A stretch of DNA of 32,000 nucleotides. Origin: Thermodesulfobacteriota bacterium. Lineage in GTDB: Bacteria > Desulfobacterota > WTBG01 > JAGOGO01. The stretch is from the NCBI GenBank assembly GCA_026625185.1, contig CP113000.1, positions 1,425,622 through 1,457,621 of the forward strand. The letters are read 5' to 3'. Shown piece after piece: positions 3,665 through 29,959 of the stretch. Positions within the stretch are counted from its first letter, which is position 1. Each line of letters opens with the position of its first letter. Below the pieces are notes generated by a model. The model searched no databases. It was given only the letters and a program-made list of their open reading frames with translations, and was not told the DNA's origin. The position numbers were made by a program, and so were the translations under genes.

Positions 3665-3799
3665 TTAACTTTGTTGTTTTGCGAGCGCTTTTTTTATCAT
3701 GTTAATAACGACCATTAATACGCCGTTTCCCACACCACCCCAGACAATACTTCCGATTATGCTACCAATATCAATGCGGCCGACACTATTGATTTTCAA
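3665..3799 (-). CDS. Possible 44-aa glycine-zipper membrane peptide
   Basis: My own translation gives (M)KINSVGRIDIGSIIGSIVWGGVGNGVLMVVINMIKKALAKQQS. It has a TTG start and no clear RBS, and lies between ypfJ and the DUF853 gene. It is below the ORF-track length cutoff. Confidence 0.3.
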   Translation of the reverse strand: MKINSVGRIDIGSIIGSIVWGGVGNGVLMVVINMIKKALAKQQS

Positions 3800-12069: not shown

Positions 12070-12192
12070 ATGAGTGCTATAAAATCATGGACCATGTCCG
12101 ACAAAGTTTGGGAACGGGTCGAGCCGCTGATTCCAAAAAAAAAGCGCCCGAGGAAGCGTAAATATCTAAATAAGGGAAAGTCTGTATTTTAG
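12070..12192 (+). pseudogene. N-terminal fragment of an IS5/IS4-type transposase (DUF4096-like)
   Basis: My own translation gives MSAIKSWTMSDKVWERVEPLIPKKKRPRKRKYLNKGKSVF*. The W-E-R-(I/V)-E-P-L-(I/L)-P motif is typical of the N-terminus of these transposases. No DDE domain follows. Confidence 0.45.
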
Positions 12193-12400
12193 AAGGTAAA
12201 AGGCTTTATCTCGAGTGAGGTGGGAAGAAAAAAGCTCTTTCTCTTCGGTGGAACCAAAATAGAATTAATATTGCTTTTCCCCTCCTTTATTCTTTAATTT
12301 TTTGGCTTACTGAGGAATGTAATGTAATAGGAGAATAACGGGATTAGACGGGATTTGCCGGTTAATGTCGGGATAATAAGAAGTTAGATGAAATTTGAGC

Positions 12401-12478
12401 AAAATTTTGTCGCCACACTGTTACCCGCCAACCCCTGTTTTTTTGTAATGAAATCGGCGACAATTTTTAAGATAAATT
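12401..12478 (-). repeat. Degenerate attC-like element (H), the distal end of the array
   Basis: The minus strand reads TCTTAAAAATTGTCGCCGAT..GGCGACAAAATTTT. It shares TTAA..GCCGAT with the clear copies and has an inverted repeat of about 12 bp, but no clear GTT R' box. Confidence 0.3.
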
Positions 12479-12505
12479 TCCGCACGTAGTTTGAAAAAAA
12501 CCGCC

Positions 12506-12643
12506 TTATTTCTTTTTGGGAACTTTAATCGTTTCGACAACGGCCGTCGACGTTCTTCTTTGAGCAACTTTAACAGGAATAAATTTTCCCGTTCCTGCGT
12601 CACGTCCAACTTTAAAAGTAGTATTACCTGCTTTTTTAGGCAT
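12506..12643 (-). CDS. Small basic hypothetical protein (45 aa)
   Basis: My own translation gives MPKKAGNTTFKVGRDAGTGKFIPVKVAQRRTSTAVVETIKVPKKK*, with a GGAGGGTG RBS 5 nt upstream. The 78-aa track ORF 12421..12657 is in a different, implausible frame. Confidence 0.5.
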   Translation of the reverse strand: MPKKAGNTTFKVGRDAGTGKFIPVKVAQRRTSTAVVETIKVPKKK

Positions 12644-12679
12644 TTCACACCCTCCATTATAAAACTATTTAATTTTTAT

Positions 12680-12768
12680 TATATTATCCGCACGTATTTT
12701 AAAAAACACTCATAATCATAAATTTTAAACGCAGAAATCAGCCGCCGGGGTCTTAGGCCGGGTGGGTT
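12680..12768 (-). repeat. Degenerate attC-like element (J) after the 224-aa membrane-protein cassette
   Basis: ATCAGCCGCCGGGGTCTTAGG resembles ATCGGCATAAGGCGCCGGGGTTAAG of copy B. The left half is poorly conserved. Confidence 0.25.
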
Positions 12769-12769
12769 T

Positions 12770-13441
12770 TCAATCCGGCGAATTGAGGTTCGGAATTTTC
12801 AGGCCGACCCTTAGTGCTGCATCACTTCCCAGATCTTGGACGTAATAACCCCGATTTGGTATTTGTAGGCCCGTTAACAATTTAGACAGCGTAGCGCCAA
12901 TATCGGGACTATCCGGGCGTGCCCACCAAATGACTCCATATTCTACCCCAGTCACCATTCCTATCTCGCCATCTACCTCGACGCGTAGTCCTGATGCCTT
13001 CAAGGCTTCTGCAATTTCGTTTGCGAAATTGTATGGTTCAAGCTCACCGCGGCGATGGATATTTATTGTCATCCCACGAAATCTGGACATTGCGTTAATG
13101 ATTGACCAGCGATCTACCTTAGTCAAATGACGGGGCGCAAGTTGCCGCTCTAATTGAATGCGTGCAAAACGCTCTTTTTCGACCTGCAAGGATAGGTCCG
13201 AAGCTTGTCGTTCTTTATAATGTGAGTATATTGCTTGCACCACGGATAGGGCAACAAACAAAACGAGAAAGAGGATTGTCAAACTCATGCCCCACTTGAT
13301 CTTGAAGATTTTTTCCAAAAACCCAAGACTTCCAAGAATAATCAATCCGATTGAAAGCGCCAGCCGCCACGAGAAAATAAAAGATACAGCAAATAGGCCG
13401 CAAAAGACAAAAACTATCACGATAATTAAGCATTTTTTCAT
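12770..13441 (-). CDS. Cassette ORF: membrane protein with a soluble C-terminal domain (hypothetical)
   Basis: Start taken at MKKCLIIV, because the track's TTG start lies inside the attC-like repeat. Three or four N-terminal TM helices, then about 130 aa of soluble sequence. Confidence 0.55.
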   Translation of the reverse strand: MKKCLIIVIVFVFCGLFAVSFIFSWRLALSIGLIILGSLGFLEKIFKIKWGMSLTILFLVLFVALSVVQAIYSHYKERQASDLSLQVEKERFARIQLERQLAPRHLTKVDRWSIINAMSRFRGMTINIHRRGELEPYNFANEIAEALKASGLRVEVDGEIGMVTGVEYGVIWWARPDSPDIGATLSKLLTGLQIPNRGYYVQDLGSDAALRVGLKIPNLNSPD

Positions 13442-13458
13442 AATAATTTTTGATGCAT

Positions 13459-13560
13459 AACAGTATTTATATTGAGCCAAATAAAAACCCAAATGGTTTA
13501 CTCAATTATAAAAAATGGCATAAAATCCAGTTGTTAAAAATTTTATAATTTTGGGGGCGT
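13459..13560 (-). repeat. attC-like recombination site, copy A
   Basis: The plus strand reads AACAGTATTTATATTGAGCC..ATGGCATAAAATCCAGTTGTTAAAAATTTTATAATTTTGGGGGCG. R' on the minus strand is GTTATGC and R'' is TTTTAAC. Confidence 0.55.
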
Positions 13561-13579
13561 CCCCATCTTTCCGTTTTAG

Positions 13580-14693
13580 TTAGGTAGAATCAACTTCAAA
13601 GTGCACCATTTGAGAAAAGCATGCGACATGACAGGAATTCTGGTATGTTGAGAAGAACGACCAACTCGCAACCAGAAAGAGCCTGCCATGTCATATATAC
13701 ATTTAACAGAAAACGAACGATATGTCATCAGCCATTTAAATGTGGCTGGATTTAGTAAACGAGAAATTGCCCGCCGGATAAACCGAGATCACAGCACGGT
13801 CAGTCGTGAACTTAAACGCAACGGGCCGGAATATGATTGCACTGTTTATTGGTATGACTGGACGCATCCGGTAGCTCTAAAACGACGGCATCAGGCCAGG
13901 CATTATCGTCGGGAGGGCAACGAGCGCCTTGTTGATTATGTAAAAACAAAACTGAATCTGCAATGGTCTCCAGAGGAGATAAGCGATTATATGCGGATTA
14001 ATTATCCTGATGATGAGACGATGCGAGTGTGCCATGAGACAATTTATCGCTGGATTTATAAGGATGCGAAGGTTAATGGCAAGCTTTATCTAAACCTGCG
14101 GCGGGGGAGGAAAAGGCGACGGCGCCAGAAACGGTATGGTTTGGGAAGGCGGTTTCTTGCCGGGCGCAAGAGAATTGCTCAACGACCTGAAATCGTGGAA
14201 GGGAGAAAACGATTTGGAGACTGGGAGGGCGATACGATCGAAGGCAAAAAAAGCAGTGGCTATATCGCGACGTTAGTCGAACGCAAGAGCCGCTACCTTT
14301 TGGCTGGCAAGCTGGAAAATAAGAAAGCTACGACATTGACAGATAAAAGCACTCAAATTTTCAGGCGCATTCCTGGAATAATGCGGCAAACTTTAACGGT
14401 AGATAATGGAACAGAGTTTGCCCAATTTAAAGAACTTGAGGAAAAAACCAAACTCAGTATTTACTTTGCCGATCCTTATGCTGCATGGCAGCGAGGAGCC
14501 AATGAAAACACCAACGGATTACTGCGGCAGTATTTTCCGAAAGGAACTTACATGAGAAAAATTACCGAACGTGATATTTCTCGTGCTGTTAAAAGGCTTA
14601 ATAATCGGCCAAGAAAATCTCTCAACTACCGGACACCCTATGAAGTGTTCTGGAATGCAGCTCGTGGTGCACTTGCAATTTGAATTCACCTTA
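13580..14693 (+). mobile_element. IS30-family insertion sequence
   Basis: Imperfect terminal inverted repeats: left ..AGGTAGAATCAACTTCAAAGTGCACCA, right (reverse complement) ..AAGGTGAATTCAAATTGCAAGTGCACCA. They enclose a single transposase gene. The element is about 1.1 kb. Confidence 0.8.
13688..14683 (+). CDS. IS30-family DDE transposase
   Basis: 331 aa. N-terminal HTH (LTENERYVISHL..GFSKREIARRINRDHSTVSRELKRN), then GDWEGDTI..TLTVDNGTEF..ANENTNGLLRQYFPKG, the DD(E) signature. Confidence 0.9.
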   Translation: MSYIHLTENERYVISHLNVAGFSKREIARRINRDHSTVSRELKRNGPEYDCTVYWYDWTHPVALKRRHQARHYRREGNERLVDYVKTKLNLQWSPEEISDYMRINYPDDETMRVCHETIYRWIYKDAKVNGKLYLNLRRGRKRRRRQKRYGLGRRFLAGRKRIAQRPEIVEGRKRFGDWEGDTIEGKKSSGYIATLVERKSRYLLAGKLENKKATTLTDKSTQIFRRIPGIMRQTLTVDNGTEFAQFKELEEKTKLSIYFADPYAAWQRGANENTNGLLRQYFPKGTYMRKITERDISRAVKRLNNRPRKSLNYRTPYEVFWNAARGALAI

Positions 14694-14711
14694 TACAATA
14701 AATACTCCCAT

Positions 14712-15032
14712 TCACAGCGTTAACAAGCCTCGTTTCTCATAGAGGCTCTGCGGTTCTTTGCGCCAGAAGCTCCAACACTTTTCCTGTCCCGGAAGGTAAT
14801 GAATCCGCGGATCGGACATGCACGCGCACCTTGCACGATCCTCTGAAAGGCCCGTTCCCTTCGCCAGTGTTTCAGTGGTCACATGGCTCTCTTGGGGTTC
14901 GTCCCGCGTGTTGGCGCGGAGCCAATTATATACCTTCCGCCGGTCCAATTTCGCACGCACTCGCGCGACTAACCACCAGAGCAGGCCCACGGCCAATGCT
15001 GACGAGACCGCTTTTACAACGTCATCTTTCAT
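14712..15032 (-). CDS. Cassette ORF: hypothetical protein with one TM helix (106 aa)
   Basis: Start moved to MKDDVV, which has a GAGGGAG RBS 5 nt upstream. The track start would overlap attC copy B. The IS30 element separates it from its attC (copy A). Confidence 0.55.
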   Translation of the reverse strand: MKDDVVKAVSSALAVGLLWWLVARVRAKLDRRKVYNWLRANTRDEPQESHVTTETLAKGTGLSEDRARCACMSDPRIHYLPGQEKCWSFWRKEPQSLYEKRGLLTL

Positions 15033-15051
15033 ACTATCTCCCTCACCTATC

Positions 15052-15128
15052 AGGTAACGGGCTTTCCATCCCATATATATAAATCGGCATAAGGCGCCGG
15101 GGTTAAGAATTTTGTAATTTTAGGGATG
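15052..15128 (-). repeat. attC-like recombination site, copy B
   Basis: The plus strand reads AGGTAAC..ATATATATAAATCGGCATAAGGCGCCGGGGTTAAGAATTTTGTAATTTTAGGGATG. R' is GTTACCT and R'' is TCTTAAC. Confidence 0.5.
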
Positions 15129-15356
15129 TCTCTCACTTTTTCCCCTGGTTCGAAGGATGACGCCAGTCTGCTCAATCTGGTACTCGCCCTTCTTCAGCCG
15201 ATTTATGGTCAATCCGTCTGAAGTCCGAAGCTCCTTTAGCCCTTCAACGACGGTTTTTTGATTCTCGCCAGTTTCAATGAAGTCGGTGTAGACGTAGACG
15301 GTGTACCGACGGCCGTCGTCACCAACCGCTAAGAATCTGCCAGTTTGTCTCTTCAT
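15120..15356 (-). CDS. Cassette ORF: small hypothetical protein (78 aa)
   Basis: AAAGGAAAA RBS. The TAA stop lies inside the conserved box of the repeat. Confidence 0.6.
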   Translation of the reverse strand: MKRQTGRFLAVGDDGRRYTVYVYTDFIETGENQKTVVEGLKELRTSDGLTINRLKKGEYQIEQTGVILRTRGKSERHP

Positions 15357-15373
15357 TAATTTTCCTTTAAACC

Positions 15374-15484
15374 GCCGAACAGTGGTTATATTGATCCGTA
15401 AAAAAACCTAAATAAGTTATTAAGTTATAAAAAAATCGGCATAAGGCGCCGTTGTTAAGAATTTTATAATTTTAGGGACGGCCA
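15374..15484 (-). repeat. attC-like recombination site, copy C (best-preserved)
   Basis: The minus strand reads CCCTAAAATTATAAAATTC-TTAAC-AACGGCGCC-TTATGCCGAT..ATCAATATAA-CCACT-GTTCGGC. On the plus strand AACAGTGG pairs with CCGTTGTT and TTATATTGAT pairs with ATCGGCATAA, using G-T pairs and leaving GGCG unpaired. Confidence 0.65.
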
Positions 15485-15500
15485 CTTTCTTTTCACTTCG

Positions 15501-15722
15501 TCAGTCGATTTTGCGCACCTGAATCATCTCATTCATGCCTTCGACTTCGAGCATATACTTGGAGCCATCCTTCAAGATCTTCGCCCTGGGCCTATATTTG
15601 TACTTGTACTTATATTTATAGCGTACCTGTTGCCATTTAGACCCATCAACAAGCTCGTACACATTATCTAAATCCCAACCGTGGAATTCTCCAACAATTC
15701 GGCTTTTCTTTTTGAGTTCCAT
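15501..15722 (-). CDS. Cassette ORF: small hypothetical protein (73 aa) with a KYKYKYKY run
   Basis: GAAGGAAAG RBS. IVGEFHGWDLDNVYELVDGSKWQQVRYKYKYKYKYRPRAKI..MLEVEGMNEMIQVRKI, a small beta-rich pattern I have seen widely in bacteria but cannot name. Confidence 0.6.
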   Translation of the reverse strand: MELKKKSRIVGEFHGWDLDNVYELVDGSKWQQVRYKYKYKYKYRPRAKILKDGSKYMLEVEGMNEMIQVRKID

Positions 15723-15742
15723 TTATAATCTTTCCTTCACAA

Positions 15743-15790
15743 AGCCAACAATATTTATATTGATCCACATAGAGCGCCGTGGTTAAGAAT
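15743..15790 (-). repeat. attC-like recombination site, copy D (short form)
   Basis: The minus strand reads TTCTTAAC-CACGGCGCTCTATGTGGATCAATATAAATATT-GTTGGCT. The upstream ORF's stop codon is the TAA inside TTAAC. Confidence 0.5.
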
Positions 15791-16535
15791 TTGTCCCGTG
15801 CGCCGCCCCGTTCGCAAATTTGATTTGTTGTCGTCCTACGAGCTCCTTGAGTTGCTCGACGGTTAGCCAAGGTTGATGCTTACGATGCAACATGCTGTGG
15901 CAATTAGAACAAACAGGAAGCAAGTCTGCAACGCTTACGATAGTGTCAGGAGTCAAAGTTGCAATAGGAATCTTATGGTGAGCTTCGATGAAACCTGCAC
16001 CAAGCTCCCCATACGTTTTAGAAAAACTGAAACCGCATGCACTGCATGAAATGTTTCCATGTGAGGCAGCCATCCACGTTTCTTTTGCTCTATTAACAAG
16101 ATTGCGATTCCTCTCCTTGTCTCGATGAAGTCGGAATTGCTCTTTGCCTTCCCTGAAGGATTGCTCGTTGGGATCGAATCCAAACTCCTGCGCCAACAAC
16201 ACATCAGGTTCAGGTGCGATATATAGAGCATTTTCGATCCGCTCACGGTCAGAGGAACTCGTCGCATGTTTGAGAAGAATGGCTTTGAGTTCTGGCGACT
16301 TATCATTTTGCCAATCTCTATACAATCGGTCAAAGTCATGCAAGGAACTTATATGGGGTCGAAGACCTCTAATGAACTTGTCGTTGACAGTGGTCTTTTC
16401 AATTCCTCTTTGCGCAGCAATAGACTTGGTGGCCTGCAAACGCCTTGAATAAACACTGGTGTCCGAAGGATTTGCCCGAAAGGCTTCCTTGATTTCCTCA
16501 ATTACTTCAGCAATCTGCTCTATCTTGACACTCAT
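15783..16535 (-). CDS. Cassette ORF: HNH nuclease with an unknown N-terminal domain of about 140 aa
   Basis: The C-terminus CSACGFSFSKTYGELGAGFIEAHHKIPIA..LLPVCSNCHSMLHR is a McrA-like HNH motif (CxxC..HH..CxxCH). I do not recognise the N-terminal half. Confidence 0.7.
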   Translation of the reverse strand: MSVKIEQIAEVIEEIKEAFRANPSDTSVYSRRLQATKSIAAQRGIEKTTVNDKFIRGLRPHISSLHDFDRLYRDWQNDKSPELKAILLKHATSSSDRERIENALYIAPEPDVLLAQEFGFDPNEQSFREGKEQFRLHRDKERNRNLVNRAKETWMAASHGNISCSACGFSFSKTYGELGAGFIEAHHKIPIATLTPDTIVSVADLLPVCSNCHSMLHRKHQPWLTVEQLKELVGRQQIKFANGAAHGTNS

Positions 16536-16563
16536 GATGAAAAGTCCAACGTCGGAGTTTGTG

Positions 16564-16675
16564 AGCTAACAAGGCTTATATTGATCCATATTAAAACCCA
16601 AAATGCGTAACTCAATCTATAAAAAAATCGGCATAAGGCTCGTTTGTTAAGAATTTTATAATTTTAGGTACGGGG
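16564..16675 (-). repeat. attC-like recombination site, copy E
   Basis: The minus strand reads CCTAAAATTATAAAATTC-TTAAC-AAACGAGCC-TTATGCCGAT..ATCAATATAA-GCCTT-GTTAGCT. Confidence 0.65.
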
Positions 16676-17347
16676 CCTTCCTCCCGGGTATCTATCCACT
16701 GCCCATATCTCTCGGTTTGTGATCCTACATTCGGAGATGAGGGAACACACCAAAACAAAGAGTCCGGCATAAAAAATCAGACGTAAGTTGCCTTGAAAAC
16801 TGCAGTTTCGAAACCAACAAAAGTAGAGTGGGACAATGATCATAAAATAGCTTGAACAGTACAAAAAGTTCAGCATGGATGCCCATTTGTCTATTTCAAT
16901 TTGAATGGATCCCACTTCCTTATCAGGAGCTGCCCTCCGCAGCAAACGCTGGGAGTCCAATTGGAAAATAACCTCCCACGCCCTGATGGTTCCGAGTCTT
17001 TTGGTCAATTTCTCTCTATTGTCAGCCCTCCTGATAGTATAGGAGAAGACAATTAAAAACCCAAAAAACCTTACAATGGATCCCGTGTGCAAAGCGTAGA
17101 TTGCTAAACCGGTGAGAATTGCGATCAGCAATACCAATGTAAAAAAGACATTGTCCGGGAGAGAAACAGCTTGAGGGGGTTTGAGGATTATGGACAAAAC
17201 TGGATGGGATCCGGGGGGTGCTGCCGGATGGTATTCGGCTTTTATGGCCCAGACAACAAGAACAGCGACAAACCCAGGTGCAATATACCGAAGAACATTG
17301 CCCAACTGTGCGAATAGACGATCAATCGCCAAGAATACATCATTCAT
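16664..17347 (-). CDS. Cassette ORF: polytopic membrane protein (227 aa), hypothetical
   Basis: GGAGGTGG RBS. Five or six hydrophobic helices. The stop lies inside the conserved repeat box. Confidence 0.6.
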   Translation of the reverse strand: MNDVFLAIDRLFAQLGNVLRYIAPGFVAVLVVWAIKAEYHPAAPPGSHPVLSIILKPPQAVSLPDNVFFTLVLLIAILTGLAIYALHTGSIVRFFGFLIVFSYTIRRADNREKLTKRLGTIRAWEVIFQLDSQRLLRRAAPDKEVGSIQIEIDKWASMLNFLYCSSYFMIIVPLYFCWFRNCSFQGNLRLIFYAGLFVLVCSLISECRITNREIWAVDRYPGGRPRT

Positions 17348-17363
17348 TTTCCACCTCCACTTA

Positions 17364-17432
17364 CCCTACAGTGTTCTAAAAAATCGGCATAAGGCGCCGT
17401 TGTTAAAGAATTTTATAATTTTATGGACGGCC
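17364..17432 (-). repeat. attC-like recombination site, copy F (central part deleted, R' degenerate)
   Basis: The minus strand reads CCATAAAATTATAAAATTC-TTTAAC-AACGGCGCC-TTATGCCGAT-TTTTTAGAAC-ACTGTAGGG. It follows the HsdS-like gene. Confidence 0.5.
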
Positions 17433-17458
17433 CCTTTTTCCCCTCATTGCTATATACC

Positions 17459-18970
17459 CTAAATTGGCACATTGACCGTTTTCCCTTCGATGATTTGCTC
17501 CTGCACTTCGGAAAGGGTGTGTTGTAGGGCTTTCATCTCGCGGTCAAGCTCCCAGATGCCCAAATCAAAGTTCCATCGGCGGTGCCATTGTACGAAAGTG
17601 TCGAGAGTTGGTTGCCCCGGTGGCTCAGGAGCGTCGTGGTGGTACAACTGAGTCATCTCCACTTGGAAATCATCCTGAAATTTGGGAATAGGCAAAAAAG
17701 AAAAATAACCTTCAACAAAACTGCCGCCATTTGAAGTGTCGGAAAGCCTCGCAAATATGCCAATCTGTTTGCAATAATTAAGAAAAAGAGCAAGAAAGAC
17801 ATTTCGTGAAATATTACCTGAATCGATTAAAAAAGAATCAAAATTCGTTACAAGATCGGCGTCTGCCAAATGAACGTATGTATGCCCAATGCTAACTTCG
17901 CGCTTCCCTTTTGCCGCAAACATCACCTCGCCCTTCCTTACAATGTCAACCCTTCGGGCATTGCCGTAATAACGGAATCTTGGAATGGTCATATAATCCG
18001 TTATGTCGCCTGGTGTAGCGTGCAATTGAGCACTTCCATAGGGATCATCATAATAGTAGCCAACTCCAGAAACACTCACAGCGAGATTCGGACCACGACG
18101 AGTCTTATAACCTGCTTTATAGATTGATTCCCATATACCTCCGCGATAGACAAAAAGTCTCCAAAGTTGCTTTTTAAGCTCGGGAGACCAAAAACAGGCA
18201 TCCATCCTACCTGATTCTTGAATGCTGTTCACTGTCGGGCATTCATAATGGAATGACGGGGACGTTTTTGTGTTTTTAAGTTCGTCCGTAAACCGTCTTA
18301 AGATAAGCACGTGTCGATCTCGTACAGCTTTTTCTTTTTCGACGATAGCCTCCATGAGTGCAGAGACGTATTTTATAACCCGATCGTAAGCGGGTTGATT
18401 TGGAAATGGAATAAGGCAGTTGAGTAATGTGTCTTTATTCCAGTTGTCAAGAGCACGAATAGCCCCCTTTATAGATGGTTCTTGTTGAAGTCTGCAAATA
18501 GGATGGCGGAGAAAAGCGAATAGATAAAATGGGTTCTCCTTGGGTATCAGTTTGAGGATATGACTACTCGCTATAGCATCTCCACAGTTGTAAGCTATAG
18601 CGACCTGGCCGACGGCACCGCCACGAGTGTACAATATATCACCTTCAATTATTTTACGTGCCGGCTTGGTTTTGAGAGCAGCATGATAGGCCTTCGGTGT
18701 AATGAAGGGGTTCGCGTCGTTCTTGGGATATGTTAAAGTTGTATAGTCCTGTATGGCTTTAGTGCGGACAAAATTGAAGGTGCTTTTTCGGACATATGCC
18801 AAAGAACCAACCTCGGTTCCCTGAATATAATCCTCGAGCAAGTTTGCCACGCGATTCACCGCAGATGTGGGGATAATGACCCTCCGATACATGGATGGAG
18901 ACCACGAGGTTTCTTTTTCTTTAACTTCGGAAAGATGGATTTCGCTGGGGACGCGCACGTAGTTTATCAC
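17459..18970 (-). CDS. Type I restriction-modification specificity (HsdS)-like protein
   Basis: 503 aa. Two variable halves, each followed by a conserved (I/L)P(F/I)P box and a long helix (CLIPFPNQPAYDRVIKYVSALMEAIVEKEKAV..; FLPIPKFQDDFQVEM..LDREMKALQHTLSEVQEQI). The GTG start directly abuts the methylase stop. Confidence 0.55.
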   Translation of the reverse strand: MINYVRVPSEIHLSEVKEKETSWSPSMYRRVIIPTSAVNRVANLLEDYIQGTEVGSLAYVRKSTFNFVRTKAIQDYTTLTYPKNDANPFITPKAYHAALKTKPARKIIEGDILYTRGGAVGQVAIAYNCGDAIASSHILKLIPKENPFYLFAFLRHPICRLQQEPSIKGAIRALDNWNKDTLLNCLIPFPNQPAYDRVIKYVSALMEAIVEKEKAVRDRHVLILRRFTDELKNTKTSPSFHYECPTVNSIQESGRMDACFWSPELKKQLWRLFVYRGGIWESIYKAGYKTRRGPNLAVSVSGVGYYYDDPYGSAQLHATPGDITDYMTIPRFRYYGNARRVDIVRKGEVMFAAKGKREVSIGHTYVHLADADLVTNFDSFLIDSGNISRNVFLALFLNYCKQIGIFARLSDTSNGGSFVEGYFSFLPIPKFQDDFQVEMTQLYHHDAPEPPGQPTLDTFVQWHRRWNFDLGIWELDREMKALQHTLSEVQEQIIEGKTVNVPI

Positions 18971-20377
18971 TCACGCCTCCTTAAGGAACAAACGCTGAAG
19001 GGTTTCTTCCTGGCCCAACGCCCATTGACGAAAGTCTACAATGGTTTGTGTGAAATCCTCGTCGAGGATAGGATGCCCTTCGGCGTCGGTCATCACCTCG
19101 AAAGTGGTTTCATCCATACGATAGACGGAATTAAAAAAGACATTGCGCTTGCTGGTTCGCTTCTCGTAGCCCACTCGCTGTATGTCCCGCACAAAGATGG
19201 AATAATCCGATTCAAGCAATTTCTTGAGCGCTGAGGAATTCTTTGGTTTGTAAGCGACTATTAGAGTTGTGTTGACGCCCGTCTCTGCGAAAACGTTCGC
19301 GGGAAGGTCAAAAAGTGCGACAATTCGCATTCGTTCCATCAGCCATTCACGCACCTGCCTCCATCGGTTAATTGAGGCGATGGAATTGGAAAGGACGATG
19401 CCGAGACGGCCTTCAGATTTCAAGATTTGATAGGCGTTTTCGAGGAAGACAACGCCAAGGTCAAGGTTATCGCCCCCGCCCGATAGGTTCCATGTCTCAT
19501 ACATTTCAATGATACGGCGTTCTTCCTCATTGCCGGGGCGGTACGCGCGATCTTCTCCGAAGGGCGGATTGGTAAGGACGACATCAAACTGCATGAGGCG
19601 GGTGTTGTCTGGCCAATCATCCCAAGCGCCGGACTTGTGGCGGTCTGGAATAAGGTCAATAAGGGTGGGCGGATTGCCGGCGACGAATTTCGCAAGTATG
19701 GAGCCGGGAAGGTGCCGGTAATGAAGTTTGGCTTCGCCATCGCCGTTAAGAAGCATATTGAGAGTAGCGAGCATAATCATGTTTTCGTCAAGGTCCACGC
19801 CATAGATATTAGCATCGTCGAGCTGCCAACCCTTTTCCTTTTTCAAGGCGTTAACAAACGAAAGAGAGAGGAAATCACCTATGCCACAACAGGGGTCAAT
19901 AATCTTCTCGTCGTCACGAGGGTTGACGATTTTGACGAGGAAGTCAATGACCGGGATCGGGGTGAGGAATTGGGCGGCTTCATTGCGTGTAAAAAAGTTG
20001 GCGAAGTTATAAAAAACAAGTTGGTAAAGGTCGCTATTGGCGGATTTGATAAATGAAAAGTCTTGGAAAGCACGGCAAACAGCGACAACGGCCCGGACGT
20101 GGTTGGCGTTCTTCCAATCGATGGCATCGGCACTCAGGATTTTCTGGTACTGGCCTGCGGCTTCTGCGCGGATGCCCTTCATGCGCTTGATAAAATCCTG
20201 AATTGGCTTGTTGCTAAGAGCATGAAACGCGGCTTCGGAATCTGTGATGAAAAACTCCAGCTTTTTTTTTGGGTATTTCTCGTTGCGCTTCTCGTCAAAA
20301 ATTTTGATGGCGAAGGTTTCAATAAGAATTTGATAGCCTCGTTGGTTCACAAGCGACGCCTTGTCGAGGGTGCGCAA
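18971..20377 (-). CDS. N6-adenine DNA methyltransferase (gamma class, HsdM-like), 5' end possibly truncated
   Basis: Motif I IIDPCCGIGDFL and motif IV VLTNPPFG. Only a TTG start is available, and the frame stays open upstream with protein-like sequence (..SYAELDVITSIATVQLQTALSEVL) but no start codon. Confidence 0.75.
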   Translation of the reverse strand: MRTLDKASLVNQRGYQILIETFAIKIFDEKRNEKYPKKKLEFFITDSEAAFHALSNKPIQDFIKRMKGIRAEAAGQYQKILSADAIDWKNANHVRAVVAVCRAFQDFSFIKSANSDLYQLVFYNFANFFTRNEAAQFLTPIPVIDFLVKIVNPRDDEKIIDPCCGIGDFLSLSFVNALKKEKGWQLDDANIYGVDLDENMIMLATLNMLLNGDGEAKLHYRHLPGSILAKFVAGNPPTLIDLIPDRHKSGAWDDWPDNTRLMQFDVVLTNPPFGEDRAYRPGNEEERRIIEMYETWNLSGGGDNLDLGVVFLENAYQILKSEGRLGIVLSNSIASINRWRQVREWLMERMRIVALFDLPANVFAETGVNTTLIVAYKPKNSSALKKLLESDYSIFVRDIQRVGYEKRTSKRNVFFNSVYRMDETTFEVMTDAEGHPILDEDFTQTIVDFRQWALGQEETLQRLFLKEA

Positions 20378-20444: not shown

Positions 20445-20699
20445 GAGCGGCGGCTGCGGTCGACCTGCGCCGGGCTGTCAATGGAGGTTAAAGATTGGGG
20501 TTTAAGTACGACAACGTTTACTCTATTCCTCGCGATGCCGAAAACGATTCAAATCGGCGATACCTACGAGGCCTATCCCGGATGTGATAAAAAAGTGAGC
20601 ACCTGTGAAGATAAATACGACAATGTAATAAATTTTAGGGGTGAGCCGTTTGTGCCTCCCGAAAGCGTTATAAATCAATCTCCGGATGCAGAGGACTAA
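20445..20699 (+). pseudogene. C-terminal fragment of a phage/GTA DUF2163 (BR0599-like) distal tail protein
   Basis: GLSMEVKDW..FTLFLAMPKTIQIGDTYEAYPGCDKKVSTCEDKYDNVINFRGEPFVP matches the GCDK..TC..K(F/Y).N..NFRG C-terminus. The frame opens only at 20445. About 200 N-terminal residues are absent. Confidence 0.6.
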
Positions 20700-20705
20700 T
20701 TTTAC

Positions 20706-23700
20706 ATGTGGGGTTTCCTTTTTGCGATAGGGCTTTCATTTTTAGGAAAGCTTTTTAACAAGCCGGTTAAACAATACGGCCCGCGCCTGGAAGACCGGCG
20801 AGTAACCGCGAAAACGTATGGGGAACCGATTAGGCGCGGATGGGGGGCAAATCGCTGGGAGGGTAAATATATATGGGTGGAAGGAAATCAATTAAGGGAA
20901 AAAAAGAAATCGAAGACCAGCGGCGGGGTAACGACAGTTACCTACCATTACTATGCGACCTTCGCGGTGTCATGGGGGTCCGGGCCGATTACCGCCATAC
21001 GGCGGATTTGGCTCAATGATAAGCTGGTCTATAATGTTATGCCCGACAATAAAAAAGTGGCAAAAAAAATAGTTGACAGCATGACCCATTACCTTGGAGA
21101 CCAAACCCAAGAGACTGACCCCTACATGGAAAGCGTTGAAGGCATCGGCAAAGTCCCGTCTTATCGAGGCCAGGCTTACACGTTGTTTAAAAATGTCCGT
21201 TTAGACGATTTTGGCAGCCAATTACCGTCTAAAGTCGAGGCCGAAGTGGTGGCATCGGGCGACATAGTTAATGATTTGGATATTTTTGAGTTGCCTGAGA
21301 ATCCGAATACAGATGCGATATATTTTAAACCGTGGGGCATGCCGGAAATTATATATGCTATAGGTGGTTCAACAGTAATTGTGGTGGATATTTACGATCA
21401 GTCCGTTCAAAAATATTTTCCGGCTTCTGAAAGTGACATTGGAGGGGGTGATTGGTGTTTCGATTTTTTTGGGTACGCTTACGCCTGGGGGTTTGGAGCC
21501 TATGGTTTTGTGACCGTCCCCCTTGTAAAGTACAGCAAAGACTTTAAATACCTGGGGTGGACAGTTGATTATCAGGGCAATAAAGCCGGGACAGATCAAC
21601 CCAGTGGTGGTTACTGCGTATCATTTGTCGATTACATGGGAGTATCATTGCCCTACATTTGGATTTTAGGGGGAATATCGGGAACCGTAATTGAAGGGGT
21701 GCAGCCGTTTATTTTTGGGCAAAGTCTTATGGGGGGCAAAACGCTTATTTTAGACGGTGATATGTGGTTGACCTATCTATTAAATCCTATTCCTAACCCG
21801 GCGACAACTGGTTACGGCTGCGAGGTTTTACAGGGCGCGGTGGACAAAAATGGTGATTGCTGGGCTGTTTGCGGGGTGCCATCAATGGGGCATACAGGAG
21901 GGTTTTTAATACACTGTATGATCCCGCCGGTTGTGGAATTATTGGATGCCCTCTTTATCCCATATTTTGGCAATGAAAAATTTGATATTTCTCCCTCCGA
22001 TCTGGAATATCCTCTTTACATAACTTATTTCCAAAATAAAACAGGGGATGATTTTCTCATTGTGGGCGGTCAACATAGTGGTGTCGGGCGGCTGATTAAA
22101 TATTCACTCAATTCTAAAACAGTAGTTTCCACGCTCGATTTTTCCTCCACGCTAAGAAGTGGCAACTCTGCCGCTTTTAAAAATGGTCCCAGCTCGGGGG
22201 GGATTTTTTGGCTGGTTTTGGAAAGCGGGTACGCGTGGGTGGTCGATTGTAATACCCTCACGATATTACGGCAAGTAACCTGTAGTAGTTTGGGATTTAC
22301 GGGCACTCCTAACCAGTTGCTTATTGATGATGAAGGTTTAGCATTGTGGGGTCGTGGCACAAATAGTGGTTGGGTGATGTACATCGATCGAGTTAGTGCC
22401 GATAAAGTTACTTTATCGAGTATTATAACAGAAATTGCCGAGCAGATGGACCTGACTGCCGCAGACATTGATGTCTCCGGACTGACCGGTATTGATGTTG
22501 ACGGCTTTACCGTTACTGGAGAAACAACCGGCAGAAATGCCGTGGAAACGCTTCAATTGGCGTATTTTTTCGACGGCGTGGAAAGTGACTGGAAACTTAA
22601 ATTTCCACTGAGGTCGGGAGTATCAGATGGAACAATTGACGAAGATGATTTGGGTGCGCATATATTCGGAGAGACCAGAACAGAACGGCTCCTTACCAAT
22701 CGGGAAATTGACATTGACCTCCCCCAAACAATCGAAGCCAAATACCTCGACATTGATCAAGCGCACGAAAGTAAAACCCAATTTTCTACTCGCGTCCCAA
22801 CAACTATGTATTCGCGCAATCGGGAAACAATTGATTTACCCATTGTGATGGATAAAGACCTTGCCAAACAAACAACTGAAAAATTACTTTATCTCACCTG
22901 GCTGCAAAAAGAAGGCGAATATAATTTTAATTTGCCCTGGAAATACCTGAAGTACGATCCCGCCGACTTGCTCACCGTGCCGTACAAAGAGAATAATTAT
23001 TTGTTGCGATTACTGGAAATTCAACTCGGAGCAAATCTTTTAAGTGAATATAAAGCCCTACCTGATGCTGATTATTGCTACATCTCTAATGCAGTGGGCA
23101 CAACCCAGAGCGCAGTTGAAGGTGAGGTAGAAGAAGGAGAAAAAAATTCCCATGGTCAGCTCGATCCGTATTTTTTAGATATTCCGATGATTAATGACAG
23201 AGATGATGATTGCGGATTTTATCTGGCTGCTCGGTCTTCCTATTACTGGTACGGAGCTAAAATTTTGGAATCCAACGACGGCATCAAAAATTTTGACCAG
23301 ATGGGTAGTATCGAAGATGAGTCTGTGGTTGGGCGTTGCCTATCCGCGCTTGGATCGGTTGGGAGCGTGGGGTCATTTGACTTGATTAACTCTTTAACTG
23401 TCCAGCTTTATGATTCTGATGCTGTTTTAGAGGACGCGACGGAAGCGGACGTATTAAACGGAGCAAACATATTCTTAGTGGGTGATGAAATTATACGGTT
23501 TATGAATGTTACTGACAATGGGAGTGGAAGCTGGACAATCTCAACCCTGATGAGAGGATTGCGAGGCACGGAATGGGCGGTGGGGGAGCATACCACGGGC
23601 GAGCGGTTCGTTATGCTGAATGACTCGAAAAAGCACGATCGAATCAAGCTGCAATCGGACGATATAGAACAAACGAGATTTTATGTGGTGATGCCGCCGG

Positions 23701-24080
23701 ATGCCGATCGAGGCGACCATCAGACCATACCGTTTGTGTGTAATGCGGTCGGCAAAAAACCTTATGCGCCCTGCCATGTTGGGGGCACGCGGGATGGAAG
23801 CAATAACCTGACTATCACCTGGATTCGACGAACCAGAATCGGCGGAGAGTGGCGAGACAACTCAGACGTGCCCTTAGGAGAATCCACGAAAAGTTATGAA
23901 GTGGATATTTACAAAAGCGGTTCGGTCGTGCGGACAATAACCGCGACCACCGAATCGGCGAGCTATACGGCCGCTCAGCAGACCGCAGACGGCATTACGC
24001 CCGGAAGCCCGGTTGATCTGATAATCTATCAGATTTCAGCGATCGTGGACCGGGGTTACGGGGCAGCGGCAACCGTTTAA
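20706..24080 (+). CDS. Phage host-specificity / central tail protein (lambda J-like, GTA ORFg15-like)
   Basis: 1124 aa. N-terminal YGEPIRRGWG..VTYHYYATFAVSWGSGPITAIRRIWLNDKLVY is typical of the Phage-tail_3 family. It sits directly after the DUF2163 fragment. Confidence 0.75.
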   Translation: MWGFLFAIGLSFLGKLFNKPVKQYGPRLEDRRVTAKTYGEPIRRGWGANRWEGKYIWVEGNQLREKKKSKTSGGVTTVTYHYYATFAVSWGSGPITAIRRIWLNDKLVYNVMPDNKKVAKKIVDSMTHYLGDQTQETDPYMESVEGIGKVPSYRGQAYTLFKNVRLDDFGSQLPSKVEAEVVASGDIVNDLDIFELPENPNTDAIYFKPWGMPEIIYAIGGSTVIVVDIYDQSVQKYFPASESDIGGGDWCFDFFGYAYAWGFGAYGFVTVPLVKYSKDFKYLGWTVDYQGNKAGTDQPSGGYCVSFVDYMGVSLPYIWILGGISGTVIEGVQPFIFGQSLMGGKTLILDGDMWLTYLLNPIPNPATTGYGCEVLQGAVDKNGDCWAVCGVPSMGHTGGFLIHCMIPPVVELLDALFIPYFGNEKFDISPSDLEYPLYITYFQNKTGDDFLIVGGQHSGVGRLIKYSLNSKTVVSTLDFSSTLRSGNSAAFKNGPSSGGIFWLVLESGYAWVVDCNTLTILRQVTCSSLGFTGTPNQLLIDDEGLALWGRGTNSGWVMYIDRVSADKVTLSSIITEIAEQMDLTAADIDVSGLTGIDVDGFTVTGETTGRNAVETLQLAYFFDGVESDWKLKFPLRSGVSDGTIDEDDLGAHIFGETRTERLLTNREIDIDLPQTIEAKYLDIDQAHESKTQFSTRVPTTMYSRNRETIDLPIVMDKDLAKQTTEKLLYLTWLQKEGEYNFNLPWKYLKYDPADLLTVPYKENNYLLRLLEIQLGANLLSEYKALPDADYCYISNAVGTTQSAVEGEVEEGEKNSHGQLDPYFLDIPMINDRDDDCGFYLAARSSYYWYGAKILESNDGIKNFDQMGSIEDESVVGRCLSALGSVGSVGSFDLINSLTVQLYDSDAVLEDATEADVLNGANIFLVGDEIIRFMNVTDNGSGSWTISTLMRGLRGTEWAVGEHTTGERFVMLNDSKKHDRIKLQSDDIEQTRFYVVMPPDADRGDHQTIPFVCNAVGKKPYAPCHVGGTRDGSNNLTITWIRRTRIGGEWRDNSDVPLGESTKSYEVDIYKSGSVVRTITATTESASYTAAQQTADGITPGSPVDLIIYQISAIVDRGYGAAATV

Positions 24081-24085
24081 TTTGT

Positions 24086-24105
24086 AGGGGCGCATTGCCA
24101 TGCGC
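24086..24105 (+). promoter_or_regulatory. Intercistronic 8-bp stem-loop
   Basis: GGGCGCAT-TGCC-ATGCGCCC lies between the tail gene stop and the RBS (GAAGGG) of the next gene. Confidence 0.4.
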
Positions 24106-24121
24106 CCGAAGGGAAAATATT

Positions 24122-24775
24122 ATGACCGATTTTTTGCAGATTACCGACATGACTGAAAGTCAGGCATCAAAATATCTGACGCACAACCAGGCAAACCACC
24201 GGCTGGCAGTCATGTCTCAGATATTGATTATTGACCGCGATTTAACCGCACCTCCAGGCAGCCCCAGCAATGGGCAGGTCTATATCCCCAAAGCGACCGC
24301 GACCGGCGCATGGGCCGGAAAAGAAAATTACGTGGCGATTTACGATAACGGGTGGATATTTTTAGCTCCGGCCGAAGGCTGGCGGGCATACGTGCAGGAT
24401 GAGGATGTTGAAATTAATTACAATGGCAGCGCGTGGAAACTAAAACATCCTGAAAAGGTGGTGCAGACAATTACCTGCGCCGACAATGTCACCATTGACT
24501 GGTCTCTCGGCGGGATCGGCAAAATGACCTTCGACCGGGCGACGGTAGCCTTTACTTTTTCCGGCGCGGCTGATGGGCAAAAATGCCAACTTCTTTTAAA
24601 ACAGGATGCCACTGGAGGACGGACGGTCACATTCGGCGCTGAGGTGCGCGGCAGTGACGACCTGCCGTCACCGCCGACATTATCATCCGGGGCGAATAAA
24701 CTTGACCGTCTCGGTTACGTCTATAACGGAACGGACTCAAAATATGATTTTGTGGCGATCAATAAAGGGTATTAA
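24122..24775 (+). CDS. DUF2793 phage tail-associated protein
   Basis: Start taken at MTDFLQI, which has a GAAGGGAAA RBS; the track's TTG start at 24095 falls inside the hairpin. QASKYLTHNQANHRLAVMSQILIIDRDLTAPPGSPSNGQVYI..WAGKENYVAIYDNGWIFLAPAEGWRAYV is the DUF2793 pattern. Confidence 0.65.
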   Translation: MTDFLQITDMTESQASKYLTHNQANHRLAVMSQILIIDRDLTAPPGSPSNGQVYIPKATATGAWAGKENYVAIYDNGWIFLAPAEGWRAYVQDEDVEINYNGSAWKLKHPEKVVQTITCADNVTIDWSLGGIGKMTFDRATVAFTFSGAADGQKCQLLLKQDATGGRTVTFGAEVRGSDDLPSPPTLSSGANKLDRLGYVYNGTDSKYDFVAINKGY

Positions 24776-24777
24776 CC

Positions 24778-27162
24778 GTGGGTAACGATTTTTCTCAGGA
24801 TATTTTTTGTAAGGCTCTTTGGCGCATGGAAAACGGGGCCCTTACCGTAGATTCCATAAGCACGAACACGCTATCAAATACCGGGGTGGTTAATTCTACA
24901 ACCAGCTATAAGGAAGGTTCAGATTCTGCCAAACTTAATGATACGGCTGCAAAAAATAGACTTTCAATTTCCAGCGCAAATCAATGCGCCGGGTTCCCGC
25001 TTAAAAGTGGCGATACGGTAAAGAGATTTTCGGGGTGTTGCTGGTTTTATCTCAGCGGAACGCCCTCCGGTTATCCACTTCTTTTCGGGAATGCTGAATG
25101 GAATGGAGTTGGGAGTTGCCTCTTTGTGGGGTTTAAAAATTCGACCACTCAGTTTAGGGTCGCTTGGGGATATGGAACCGTTCAACAACAGGAAGAATGG
25201 GTGGTGGCTACCTTAAGCACAGGACGGTGGTATCATGTTGGATTGGTACTCGATGGGGTAACCAAAAAGATGGTCGTGCGTATTTGGGATGATACCGCTC
25301 AAACCGCTACAACTTACACTCATACTTTTTCCAATACCCTTACCGTCCGGTCAAGCAATTCTTTTTATATCGGTTGCGATCCCACGGATAGCCCAAATTC
25401 CGTTCCCGTACTGGTTGATGAGTTGGTTTTGTTTAACCGAAATTTAGTAATAGCTGAGATAGATGCAATTCGGGGAGGAACATTTTCCGGGATTGGGTAT
25501 ATTCCTACCGCAATGAATCTTTCTGTAGTTGGGTCTCCTACTTATTTTGACCCAGATCCCTCAGGTTTGAATGATTTTTCTGAAAACTTTTCCGCCGATA
25601 ACGGACAATTCACTAAATTTACCGAAAACAATGCTGGTTCCACGTCTATTGCAAACAATAAATTTACCATTGCACAGACCACTTCGGGATCACCACAAAG
25701 CGATTATGTAGCAGAAAATACCAGTTCTTTTTCGATGCCGCAGGCATTTATAGAAGCTCAAATCGACTCATTTTCAGGAGATTCCGCCAACTGGCGAGCC
25801 GGGGTTGTTTTGATTAAGGATGCAGATAACTTTGTGAAAGTTGTTTATGAAAGCGATAACACTTACGTCCATATAACATGGAAATTTGGGGGAAGTGGTT
25901 CTTCAGGGACAGCCTCTTTCAGCATAACATTAACTCCTCCGTTTAAAATCGGATTGAGTATTGTGGGGAATTCATTGTGTGCATGGTACGATTCCGGATC
26001 GGGATGGACGTATGCTTGCAAACAGGCTTCTTCGACAACAGATTTAAGAGGATCAACTGCGTTGTCGGGCTACATGGCGGGATTTTTTGCCTTAAAAACC
26101 AGTGGGACATCCACTATTGCTTTTTCAAATTTCAAATGTGGCAGGTTTGGGGGAGTCGGGCTTAGAGATACGCGGGTTGTCACAAATGAAGACGGTACGC
26201 CTTATATAGATGGAACCACCATTCTTTTTACTGCCACTGCTTCTGACCCAGCAGGGTCATATTATGATTCTTTTACATCTCAAACCACACCTTCTGGATA
26301 TTGCGGAGTTTTCTCTCTTGATCTCGGTGACTATACCATTACCCAATTGGCTGTAATTATGGTTTCTCGAAGTAGCAAAATCATGAACGACCATGCAGCC
26401 CATATTATAAGGCATAACAATGGTGACAGGAGGCTGTTTATTTCACGATGGGGTGACGGACTTTTAACCACAATCACCGCTGACCATAAACTATTTACTA
26501 CCGGAGATATCCTTTCCGGCACGAATGTGGTTAGTGGATTGTCTGCCCTAAGCCTTCCGACAACCAGCGGAGGGGCCGGCGCCTTCGATCTCATGTCCGC
26601 CTACGATAGCGCAAATTCCCGATGGTTAATTGCATACACCACTTGGGATTCTGGAGGGAGCCAACGGCCTGCCTTGGCTTATTCAACAGATTTAAGTTCG
26701 TTTACCTCAATTAGCATTGATACCAATAACAGGGCAGAGGGAACATGTCTACAAAATTTTGACGGTACTTTTTGGATTATCGCTCAAACCTATAAGGCTA
26801 ATAGTTCATTGGTCTATGATGTTGGAATGAATCTTTTGATCTCTACTTTAGTCGCCACCTTTGACGGCGACCCGGATACCAGCCCTTGGCCGATGGTGTT
26901 TTTATTCGGTGGGCACTTTTACATGCTCACATTTAATAAAACCAGAGCATCATCCAATAATACTTGGACATGGGGTCAGCCCAAAATTGAGAAGGATAGT
27001 ATCTACTCGGTCGGCAATGACGTCGATGAAATGGTTATTCAGCCGGTTTGTGATGAGGTAACCAGCTCAATTTATAATGTCGATGAAATTATCTGTGAGT
27101 TGATTTGTGATGTTGTCACTAAAGTAAGTGGCGGTGATTATTTAATGTTTTTAGTTTTTTAG
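24778..27162 (+). CDS. Tail fibre / receptor-binding protein with LamG-like lectin domains and a C-terminal beta-propeller-like region
   Basis: 794 aa, GTG start. The N-terminal region (RLSISS..WYHVGLVLDG..LVDELVLFNRNL) is a LamG/ConA-like pattern. aa 470-740 show repeated blade-like motifs (RWLIAYTTWDSGG, GTFWIIAQTY, GGHFYMLTFN). Confidence 0.6.
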   Translation: MGNDFSQDIFCKALWRMENGALTVDSISTNTLSNTGVVNSTTSYKEGSDSAKLNDTAAKNRLSISSANQCAGFPLKSGDTVKRFSGCCWFYLSGTPSGYPLLFGNAEWNGVGSCLFVGFKNSTTQFRVAWGYGTVQQQEEWVVATLSTGRWYHVGLVLDGVTKKMVVRIWDDTAQTATTYTHTFSNTLTVRSSNSFYIGCDPTDSPNSVPVLVDELVLFNRNLVIAEIDAIRGGTFSGIGYIPTAMNLSVVGSPTYFDPDPSGLNDFSENFSADNGQFTKFTENNAGSTSIANNKFTIAQTTSGSPQSDYVAENTSSFSMPQAFIEAQIDSFSGDSANWRAGVVLIKDADNFVKVVYESDNTYVHITWKFGGSGSSGTASFSITLTPPFKIGLSIVGNSLCAWYDSGSGWTYACKQASSTTDLRGSTALSGYMAGFFALKTSGTSTIAFSNFKCGRFGGVGLRDTRVVTNEDGTPYIDGTTILFTATASDPAGSYYDSFTSQTTPSGYCGVFSLDLGDYTITQLAVIMVSRSSKIMNDHAAHIIRHNNGDRRLFISRWGDGLLTTITADHKLFTTGDILSGTNVVSGLSALSLPTTSGGAGAFDLMSAYDSANSRWLIAYTTWDSGGSQRPALAYSTDLSSFTSISIDTNNRAEGTCLQNFDGTFWIIAQTYKANSSLVYDVGMNLLISTLVATFDGDPDTSPWPMVFLFGGHFYMLTFNKTRASSNNTWTWGQPKIEKDSIYSVGNDVDEMVIQPVCDEVTSSIYNVDEIICELICDVVTKVSGGDYLMFLVF

Positions 27163-27171
27163 GAGGGTTTT

Positions 27172-27690: not shown

Positions 27691-27699
27691 GGAGAAAAA

Positions 27700-28586: not shown

Positions 28587-28598
28587 AAAGGAGTTCGC

Positions 28599-29030: not shown

Positions 29031-29043
29031 AAGGAAAGTTCGG

Positions 29044-29949: not shown

Positions 29950-29959
29950 AAAAGAAGGT

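Follow-up and report, generated by a model that had tools for sequence, protein, structure and literature searches.

A putative CALIN-like cassette array with AT-rich, sequence-defined junction repeats in the benzene-fermenting bacterium ORM2a

The 32,000-nucleotide (nt) stretch of DNA analysed here (hereafter ‘the window’, in whose positions all coordinates are given unless a contig is named) is a chromosomal locus of strain ORM2a, a benzene-fermenting member of the Desulfobacterota (Thermodesulfobacteriota) with a genome G+C content of 44.1%. The window sequence is matched by contigs from the DGG-B/OR methanogenic benzene-degrading consortium (PMC10190668). It contains an island at approximately 11.2–20.47 kb, flanked on the left and right by non-integron DNA, and within this island a cassette array proper at 12.7–20.4 kb, whose open reading frames (ORFs) run along the minus strand. 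Six copies of one repeat family lie in the array, each just 3′ of a co-oriented ORF. With a probability of roughly 0.55, we read the array as resembling a cluster of attC sites lacking an integron integrase (CALIN, in the IntegronFinder definition; Cury et al. 2016, PMC4889954), with junction sites that would be a lineage-specific, AT-rich and weakly structured variant of attC. The array as such is of a known kind, integrons and CALINs having already been documented in Desulfobacterota (PMC8618304); the site family is its unusual part.

The family is made of two modules. Read in the ORF direction, the conserved 5′ module X is TAAAATTATAAAATTCTTAAC-AACGGCGCC-TTATGCCGAT and the 3′ module Y is GATCAATATAAACAYTG|TTRRRY, within a family consensus of GRAAAGR-GGGGnCGTCCC-TAAAATTATAAAA-TTCTTAAC-AACGGCGCC-TTATGCCGAT-[0 or ~45 nt]-GATCAATATAAACAYT-G|TTRRRY. 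The conserved unit begins approximately 35 nt upstream of TTCTTAAC with GGGGnCGTCCC-TAAAATTATAAAA (palindrome GGGnCGnCCC), an extension that the original prediction, made from the window sequence, had missed and that one copy (D) lacks. A single metagenome scan yielded 14 short contigs, most of them with family members, and nhmmer profiles for X and Y were built from these metagenome copies alone, independently of the window. In the window, the profiles give six matches to X (E = 2e-18 to 9e-4) and four to Y (E = 1e-4 to 0.02), every match falling on the minus strand and inside 13.4–17.5 kb; no further copy was found by this search in the rest of the 32 kb. A degenerate 33-nt pattern has four matches against 0 expected, and repeat finding within the window groups five to six copies; the six copies are spaced 0.3–1.6 kb apart. 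A repeat family at the six places originally proposed is thereby confirmed, but the full arrangement that had been ascribed to all six is narrowed: A, C, D and E are the complete copies, with both X and Y, whereas copy B has X only and copy F a truncated Y.

In ORF direction, the island opens with an N6-adenine DNA methyltransferase gene (18971–20377, minus strand, like the array ORFs and repeats that follow), with no repeat or core site upstream of it, and continues with a specificity-subunit-like gene with a Methylase_S domain (17459–18970). Copy F (17363–17445) comes right after the specificity-like gene, as had been proposed for the end of the methylase–HsdS-like pair; it consists of X (E = 1e-17) and then a truncated Y (AACACTGT-AGGGT) without a Y profile match. 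Next is an ORF of 227 amino acids (aa), membrane-like and without a family match (16664–17347), followed by copy E (16565–16690; X, E = 6e-15; Y, E = 0.02), a complete long form ending GTTAGCT. A 250-aa HNH endonuclease (15783–16535) is followed by copy D (15744–15792; partial X, E = 9e-4; Y, E = 1e-4), a short form in which X is fused to Y with neither centre nor 5′ extension, ending GTTGGCT. After a 73-aa ORF without a family match (15501–15722) comes copy C (15375–15497; X, E = 2e-18; Y, E = 1e-4), another complete long form, ending GTTCGGC. The stop codon of the subsequent 78-aa ORF (15120–15356) lies inside the 5′ extension of copy B (15052–15132), which has X (15081–15132, E = 5e-12), a diverged 3′ half and no Y match; GTTACCT at 15052–15058, previously taken for its R' box, lies in this diverged sequence. 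A 106-aa ORF (14712–15032), with a likely start behind GGTGAGGGAG, is separated by an IS30-family insertion sequence (IS; 13582–14691, plus strand) from copy A (13456–13578), a complete long form ending GTTATGC. Copy A shows the full plan: the 5′ extension (palindrome GGGGACGCCCCC), X (13517–13567, E = 6e-13), a centre of approximately 45 nt with L-box-like pairing TTTATAATTGAG/CTCAATATAAA, and Y (13456–13478, E = 1e-4). After copy A stands a 223-aa ORF (12770–13441) with no family repeat at its 3′ side.

The claim that every minus-strand ORF is followed by a repeat therefore stands for six units, and not for the ORFs at 12770–13441 and 12506–12643; in one of the six the IS splits the ORF at 14712–15032 from its repeat. 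Every downstream ORF, in the window and in related contigs, carries its own unique leader and ribosome-binding site. The IS, inserted between that ORF and copy A, has 27-nt imperfect inverted ends and an HTH_38+rve transposase, identical copies of which occur at several other genome sites, including one in a phage-like region, next to a serine recombinase (L042/L045). The sequences L010, L011 and L012, set against window 17459–20377, vary from assembly to assembly in the called lengths for the methyltransferase (459, 468 and 516 aa) and the specificity subunit (477, 499 and 503 aa) while their downstream cassettes are identical, suggesting strain-level variation in the target-recognition domains of these genes.

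At its ends, the family is laid out like attC, with R'' at the 5′ side, R' at the 3′ side and the AAC/GTT triplet conserved. The inverse core R'' is T(C/T)TTAAC in all copies (TCTTAAC): the AAC core of the RYYYAAC-like box proposed earlier is present throughout, but the first base is T and not R. R' consists of GTT plus AGGC, ATGC, GGGC, AGAT, AGCT, GGCT or CGGC; this applies to the four window copies that are complete and to most of those from metagenomes, and a clean R' is missing from copies B and F. The 3′ ends GTTAGGC, GTTATGC, GTTATGT, GTTAGAT and GTTGGGC are the same core variants as those extracted from class-1 attCs, and the R'' and R' cores are able to form an R box of 5–6 base pairs. 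An AT-rich L box (TTAT/ATAA) takes the form TTATA(N1-4)TTGA/TCAATATAA in the long form, where the L'' arm bears extra bases; in the short form, both the L'' arm and the loop are absent. From R'' to R', the long form measures approximately 88–100 nt and the short form 45–49 nt. Known attC sites span 57–141 nt, a range that includes the long form and lies above the short one. The family departs from attC between R'' and L'', where a conserved insert of 22 nt gives a spacing of approximately 27 nt compared with approximately 5 nt in attC; the long form resembles an attC with this insert between R'' and a bulged L''.

The placement of the sites is equally regular. There is one site per cassette ORF, at its 3′ end and with the same polarity, and conservation ends at G|TT: the information content of the Y alignment drops from 8–9 to 0–3 directly after GTT, where the next cassette starts. 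The proposed architecture of unrelated, co-oriented and tightly packed ORFs with GTTRRRY-type ends is borne out, with conservation stopping at GTT. The attC sites (59-base elements) of mobile integrons, such as those of aadA1, aadA2 and dfrB1, share with the family the AAC...GTT triplets, the G|TT boundary and identical R' variants (GTTAGGC, GTTATGC, GTTAGAT and GTTGGGC), whereas a GC-rich stem, symmetric spacers of 5 nt and a clear extrahelical G/T pattern are all absent from the family. Sedentary chromosomal attC families (Vibrio cholerae repeats, Xanthomonas attCs) are likewise lineage-specific, keep their sequence from cassette to cassette and between related genomes, come in a short and a long length class and have the R' core GTTRRRY, and sequence-conserved attCs have been described for chromosomal arrays (PMC8618304, PMC4889954). 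Those families, however, are strong imperfect palindromes forming stable hairpins, whereas the repeats here are AT-rich with folding z-scores of about 0 and carry both the 22-nt R''–L'' insert and a conserved 5′ extension outside the site.

Related metagenome arrays place the family in integron company. Every contig with the family is a co-oriented ORF–repeat array; once oriented, these contigs have one plus-strand ORF between successive co-oriented repeats, with four copies in L013 (Ga0068714_10033979) and two to three in each of L015, L016, L019 and L026. We built a surrogate attC covariance model from 11 control attC sites of class-1 integrons in PLSDB plasmids, and it recovers all controls at 27–53 bits, including the untrained OXA-2 and aadA16 sites. 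Inside the family-bearing arrays, this model finds canonical attCs with the same polarity as the family: at L022 1443–1501 (35.5 bits, E = 2e-7; GCCCAAC...GGACGC...GTTAGAT), following a mazEF-like cassette; at its L015 homologue (20.6 bits); at 1222–1281 of L024 (Ga0209164_1001694; 22 bits); and, as a weaker match, in L017. The L022 and L024 sites fold as hairpins (free energy (dG) −9.9 and −17.3, z = −2.1 and −5.2), and the mazEF cassette of L022 spans from a family element's G|TTGGGC to the cassette's own attC. Because canonical attCs with the same polarity lie in the same contigs, the family-bearing metagenome arrays are genuine integron-type arrays, with X–Y elements in attC positions.

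A cassette insertion at such a junction is visible between two relatives. Compared with L022, L015 carries an additional 112-nt mini-cassette, whose insertion point is precisely the G|TT of a canonical attC, and the insert ends Y-like, ...CTATATAAACT|TTAGAC. This mini-cassette (L015 oriented 3579–3690, against L022 1497) holds a possible 16-aa hydrophobic peptide, and its end site is AT-rich and non-folding. L015 and L018 also have a 10-nt duplication (ATTGTTGGGC) at a family R'. In two contigs from different samples, L013 1–119 (oriented) and L024 13–131 are 100% identical and diverge right after ...TTTTTTTAACTGTTGAAGATCAG|TTAA(G/A)G. The shared segment ends TTTTTTTAAC-TGTTGAAGATCA-G|TTAA(G/A)G (GATCAG|TTAA(G/A)G), with different first cassettes behind it, and is a candidate attI-like platform end. 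Both contigs end approximately 120 nt upstream of this junction, leaving any integrase beyond it out of view. As a separate observation, a second conserved module, AAAAAGGTGAT(A/G)GGCCTTTTTTG, with a clean terminator-like hairpin, replaces X before some Y-only junctions (oriented positions ~240–330 in L015, ~620–660 in L016 and ~180–215 in L023).

If the ORM2a locus is a CALIN-like array with variant attCs, the array at 12.7–20.4 kb would have lost, or never had, an adjacent integrase; its six repeats would mark cassette junctions and would act, or once have acted, as attC-equivalent recombination sites; and an integron integrase encoded elsewhere or now lost would have recombined X–Y sites at G|TT. 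The direct observations behind this reading are the existence of the family, where and in which polarity its copies lie, the loss of conservation at G|TT, the co-occurrence with canonical attCs and the cassette insertion at G|TT in a relative. A CALIN is recognized by at least two attC sites within 4 kb, and the six copies stand 0.3–1.6 kb apart, although they fail the hairpin and model tests. Like CALINs, the array has at least two junction sites within 4 kb, co-oriented and promoterless-looking ORFs mostly without a known function, no intI nearby, an IS inside it, a likely origin by rearrangement and a typical size (5–6 sites). It differs in that its sites are missed by the surrogate model and by folding, and that membership rests on the cores, the position and the company kept in related arrays.

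Several results weigh against the variant-attC reading. Bottom strands of the control attCs fold with dG between −9.8 and −36.2 kcal/mol and with z ≤ −2.4 in 9 of 11, whereas the family copies, on both strands and with DNA parameters, reach −0.9 to −7.6 kcal/mol with z from −1.5 to +1.1, the same as shuffled sequence. The surrogate model has no match at copies A–F, its best window matches (≤11 bits, E > 1) falling at unrelated places, and there is no covariation in the proposed pairs among ten short copies. Module X and its ~35-nt 5′ extension are conserved well outside the R''–R' span, for which an attC model gives no account. L015 and L022 share an identical repeat and downstream cassette and differ upstream from the 5′ edge of X, a junction that a crossover by the integron integrase (IntI) should not give; this divergence has instead the look of an exchange by homologous recombination inside module X, whose 45 nt are invariant. 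The array gene order is identical in five of five assemblies of the ORM2a type, with no sign of recent activity; because all five carry the same order, the ORM2a array is probably a static remnant, possibly a fossil. Finally, a search for intI (PF00589 with the IntI-specific insertion; TIGR02249) across contig positions 181.6–230.2 kb (~48 kb), reaching ~18.5 kb beyond the left edge of the window and ~8 kb beyond its right edge, found none, in line with the original prediction that no integrase is in view.

The sole tyrosine recombinase in those ~48 kb is XerC, which scores 336 bits with TIGR02224 (cut-off 335) and 120 bits with the integron-integrase model (cut-off 265). A missing adjacent intI fits a CALIN and not a complete integron, and since the array is also flanked by non-integron DNA, it is CALIN-like and not the distal part of a larger integron, the other possibility originally offered. 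A search with IntI1 of a set of 5.8 billion proteins returned, among the best 120 matches listed, IntI1-like proteins only, a result with no bearing on ORM2a, and the ORM2a literature makes no mention of integrons. Homologues of the HNH cassette protein were also followed as a route to intI: their contexts (L047, L049–L052) are not integrons, with no attC by covariance model and no integron integrase.

The structural results bear equally on whether the repeats could be ordinary attCs of a sedentary chromosomal integron, of a kind that the genuine IntegronFinder or HattCI models would call, the negatives then reflecting a crude model of 11 sequences and the low stability of AT-rich DNA. The R''/R' core motifs, lengths of 48–111 nt, position, polarity and in-register complementarity all agree with such sites, as does the long-form L box with 1–4 extra bases on its L'' arm, resembling extrahelical bases. 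A further point for such sites is that IntegronFinder is reported to depend little on G+C content (PMC4889954). Among ten short copies, 74% of R/L-box cells pair in register, compared with 26–46% when the partners are slid. When the AAC/GTT pairs of the R box are imposed, only copies A and E have a near-optimal three-way fold of the attC type, no more than 0.3 kcal/mol from the minimum free energy, and it is still weak. The same model, however, found AT-poorer attCs in the same arrays as well as untrained controls and none of the ~25 family copies in the window and metagenome loci. The R''–L'' spacing of approximately 27 nt in place of approximately 5, the short form without an L'' arm and z-scores of about 0 also speak against ordinary attCs, which we consider quite unlikely. 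The family lacks the stable hairpin of an attC; it is AT-rich and defined by sequence and not by structure, unlike canonical attC. Nor does the plus-strand-specific folding once proposed hold: both strands are weak and no better than shuffles, and the wobble pairs of the short form favour the minus (ORF) strand. The original prediction of an integron-type array without an integrase is, on balance, partly supported; its ordinary-attC part is not, the surrogate model having scored 0 of 6 copies, the outcome that the prediction itself had set against attC identity. A stretch at 12724–12794, after the ORF at 12770–13441, is attC-like at a non-significant level and was rejected as a canonical attC (5 bits in the surrogate model, z ~0).

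The modular make-up of the family raises another explanation, that X–Y elements are not recombination sites and form a separate intergenic module (a terminator, an insulator or a protein-binding unit) or a small parasitic element, spread among cassettes by homologous recombination or by junction targeting while any true attCs decayed. X is more conserved than an attC needs, for ~35 nt past R'', and the L015/L022 junction at the 5′ edge of X is what homologous exchange in X predicts. X-only copies (B, F, L017 and L020) and Y-only copies exist, so that the two modules behave independently, and in L017 an X precedes one ORF and follows none. The absence of a hairpin signal and of a covariance-model match is also as expected for such a module. 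In copies B, C and F, the ORF strand carries a terminator-like hairpin, CGGCGCCTTATGCCG (5-bp stem), and a T-run behind it, but this hairpin is not kept across copies: pairing is lost or shifted in many members and the short form has no T-run, and we therefore rejected an intrinsic terminator. Nor does the region show enrichment for terminator-like sites (12 compared with 9.8 expected) or for promoter-like ones (8 compared with 13.7 expected). Against a separate module of any kind, conservation stops exactly at GTT plus RRRY-type cores where the next cassette begins, the family is not seen outside arrays in 163 kb of other DNA, and the copies lack the terminal inverted repeats and target duplications typical of miniature inverted-repeat transposable elements (MITEs). 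We regard a separate module as the main rival, possible though doubtful. A tiny ORF in the 5′ extension (MGT..KL*) was considered and rejected, as it is present in only ~6 of 17 copies.

The same features allow a more radical view, in which X–Y would be a second class of integron site, defined by sequence and possibly recognized in double-stranded form like attI, or with a host or accessory factor on X; we think this unlikely. In the arrays of anaerobic sediment bacteria such sites would lie beside canonical attCs and escape attC covariance models, and current tools would then under-count cassettes and arrays in these lineages. Like attI, the family is sequence-defined, A/T-rich and ends G|TTRRRY, and by eye it loosely resembles the candidate platform end of L013/L024 (an A/T run, TTTAAC, a spacer and GATCAG|TTAAGG). 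Unlike attI, which occurs once per integron beside intI, the element recurs after each ORF.

A further system in which small gene modules lie between short sites with no dedicated recombinase nearby is that of the XerCD/dif-like (pdif) modules of Acinetobacter plasmids, and here the chromosome encodes XerC ~6 kb beyond the left edge of the window. The repeats match the dif consensus poorly by eye (7/11 and 4–6/11 matches per arm, with no inner palindrome), and pdif sites alternate in orientation whereas those here are all co-oriented; a dif/Xer-like site was rejected.

Being short, AT-rich, intergenic and multi-copy, the repeats could also be a genome-wide dispersed family (of the repetitive extragenic palindromic (REP), MITE or enterobacterial repetitive intergenic consensus (ERIC) kind) that happens to cluster here. 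A scan of a further 163 kb, taken from this genome or related ones (~5% of the genome sampled) and including four other IS30 contexts, found no family copy, and none lies elsewhere in the window. GTDB representative genomes gave two unrelated, chance-like matches to the repeat pattern, and all contigs that host the family are co-oriented ORF–repeat arrays with every copy in that orientation. Absence from the 163 kb, together with only chance-like GTDB matches, argues that this is not a dispersed REP or MITE, an origin we hold to be most improbable. Viral contigs scanned with module X, the distal block described below and the candidate platform gave no match; Rfam searches at gathering and permissive thresholds had no match, and a tRNA search found none.

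Integron cassettes have been found almost wholly through the hairpin structure of attC. If a conserved, weakly folding, AT-rich site can mark, and perhaps mobilize, cassettes in arrays that also hold canonical attCs, surveys of anaerobic bacteria of the Desulfobacterota type miss part of their cassette pool, and there would be an exception to the rule of attC recognition by structure and not by sequence. If the sites are inactive, the locus is a decayed CALIN and ordinary. The island adds defence-type genes to ORM2a, namely the methyltransferase with its specificity subunit and the HNH nuclease.

The distal end of the array is marked by a conserved block of approximately 195 nt (12300–12500, minus strand), transposon-end-like and ~92% identical to a block after the last attC in L024 (1283–1474). 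It directly follows the last cassette both in the window and in that unrelated metagenome contig, with different flanks beyond. Inside the block are inverted TTGTCGCC/GGCGACAA, the motif 5′-TGTGGCGACAAAATTTTG and AATCCCG(T/A)C repeated three times, and its appearance is that of a transposon end or of a conserved 3′ part of the array platform. A direct repeat of 23 nt (TCCGCACGTA(G/T)TTT(G/A)AAAAA(A/C)AC) at 12479–12501 and 12687–12709 brackets a 45-aa, lysine-rich ORF (12506–12643), and the 195-nt block begins with the downstream one of its two copies, an arrangement that would result if the block start had been duplicated and the small gene had entered it. A 40-aa N-terminal fragment (12070–12192, plus strand; ...WTMSDKVWERVEPLIPKKKRPRKRKY...), lying between array and chromosomal genes, resembles by eye an IS5-type transposase and is a remnant. 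Left of ~11.1 kb the window holds ordinary chromosomal genes (HerA-like, Zn-peptidase, Usp and PEP-CTERM), with hslVU and the XerC gene farther left.

The right boundary of the island lies at 20468–20480 (no strand): from 20468 onward, the window corresponds to a phage/GTA-like tail cluster that is intact in L039, a separate contig of the same metagenome (88–98% identical to 20468–30115), and truncated here. The tail module (20468–30115) comprises a BR0599 fragment, an Rcc01698-like host-specificity protein, DUF2793, a lectin-like protein, a C92 peptidase and a Dam methylase, and the island directly adjoins its truncation point, marking a rearranged hotspot beside the tail cluster. After this phage remnant, 30353–31976 and the sequence beyond (L038) hold genes for an HNH protein, for a PIN-domain protein and its 221-aa partner and for a transposase of the IS1595 family, which together with the remnant form a wider mobile-element hotspot.

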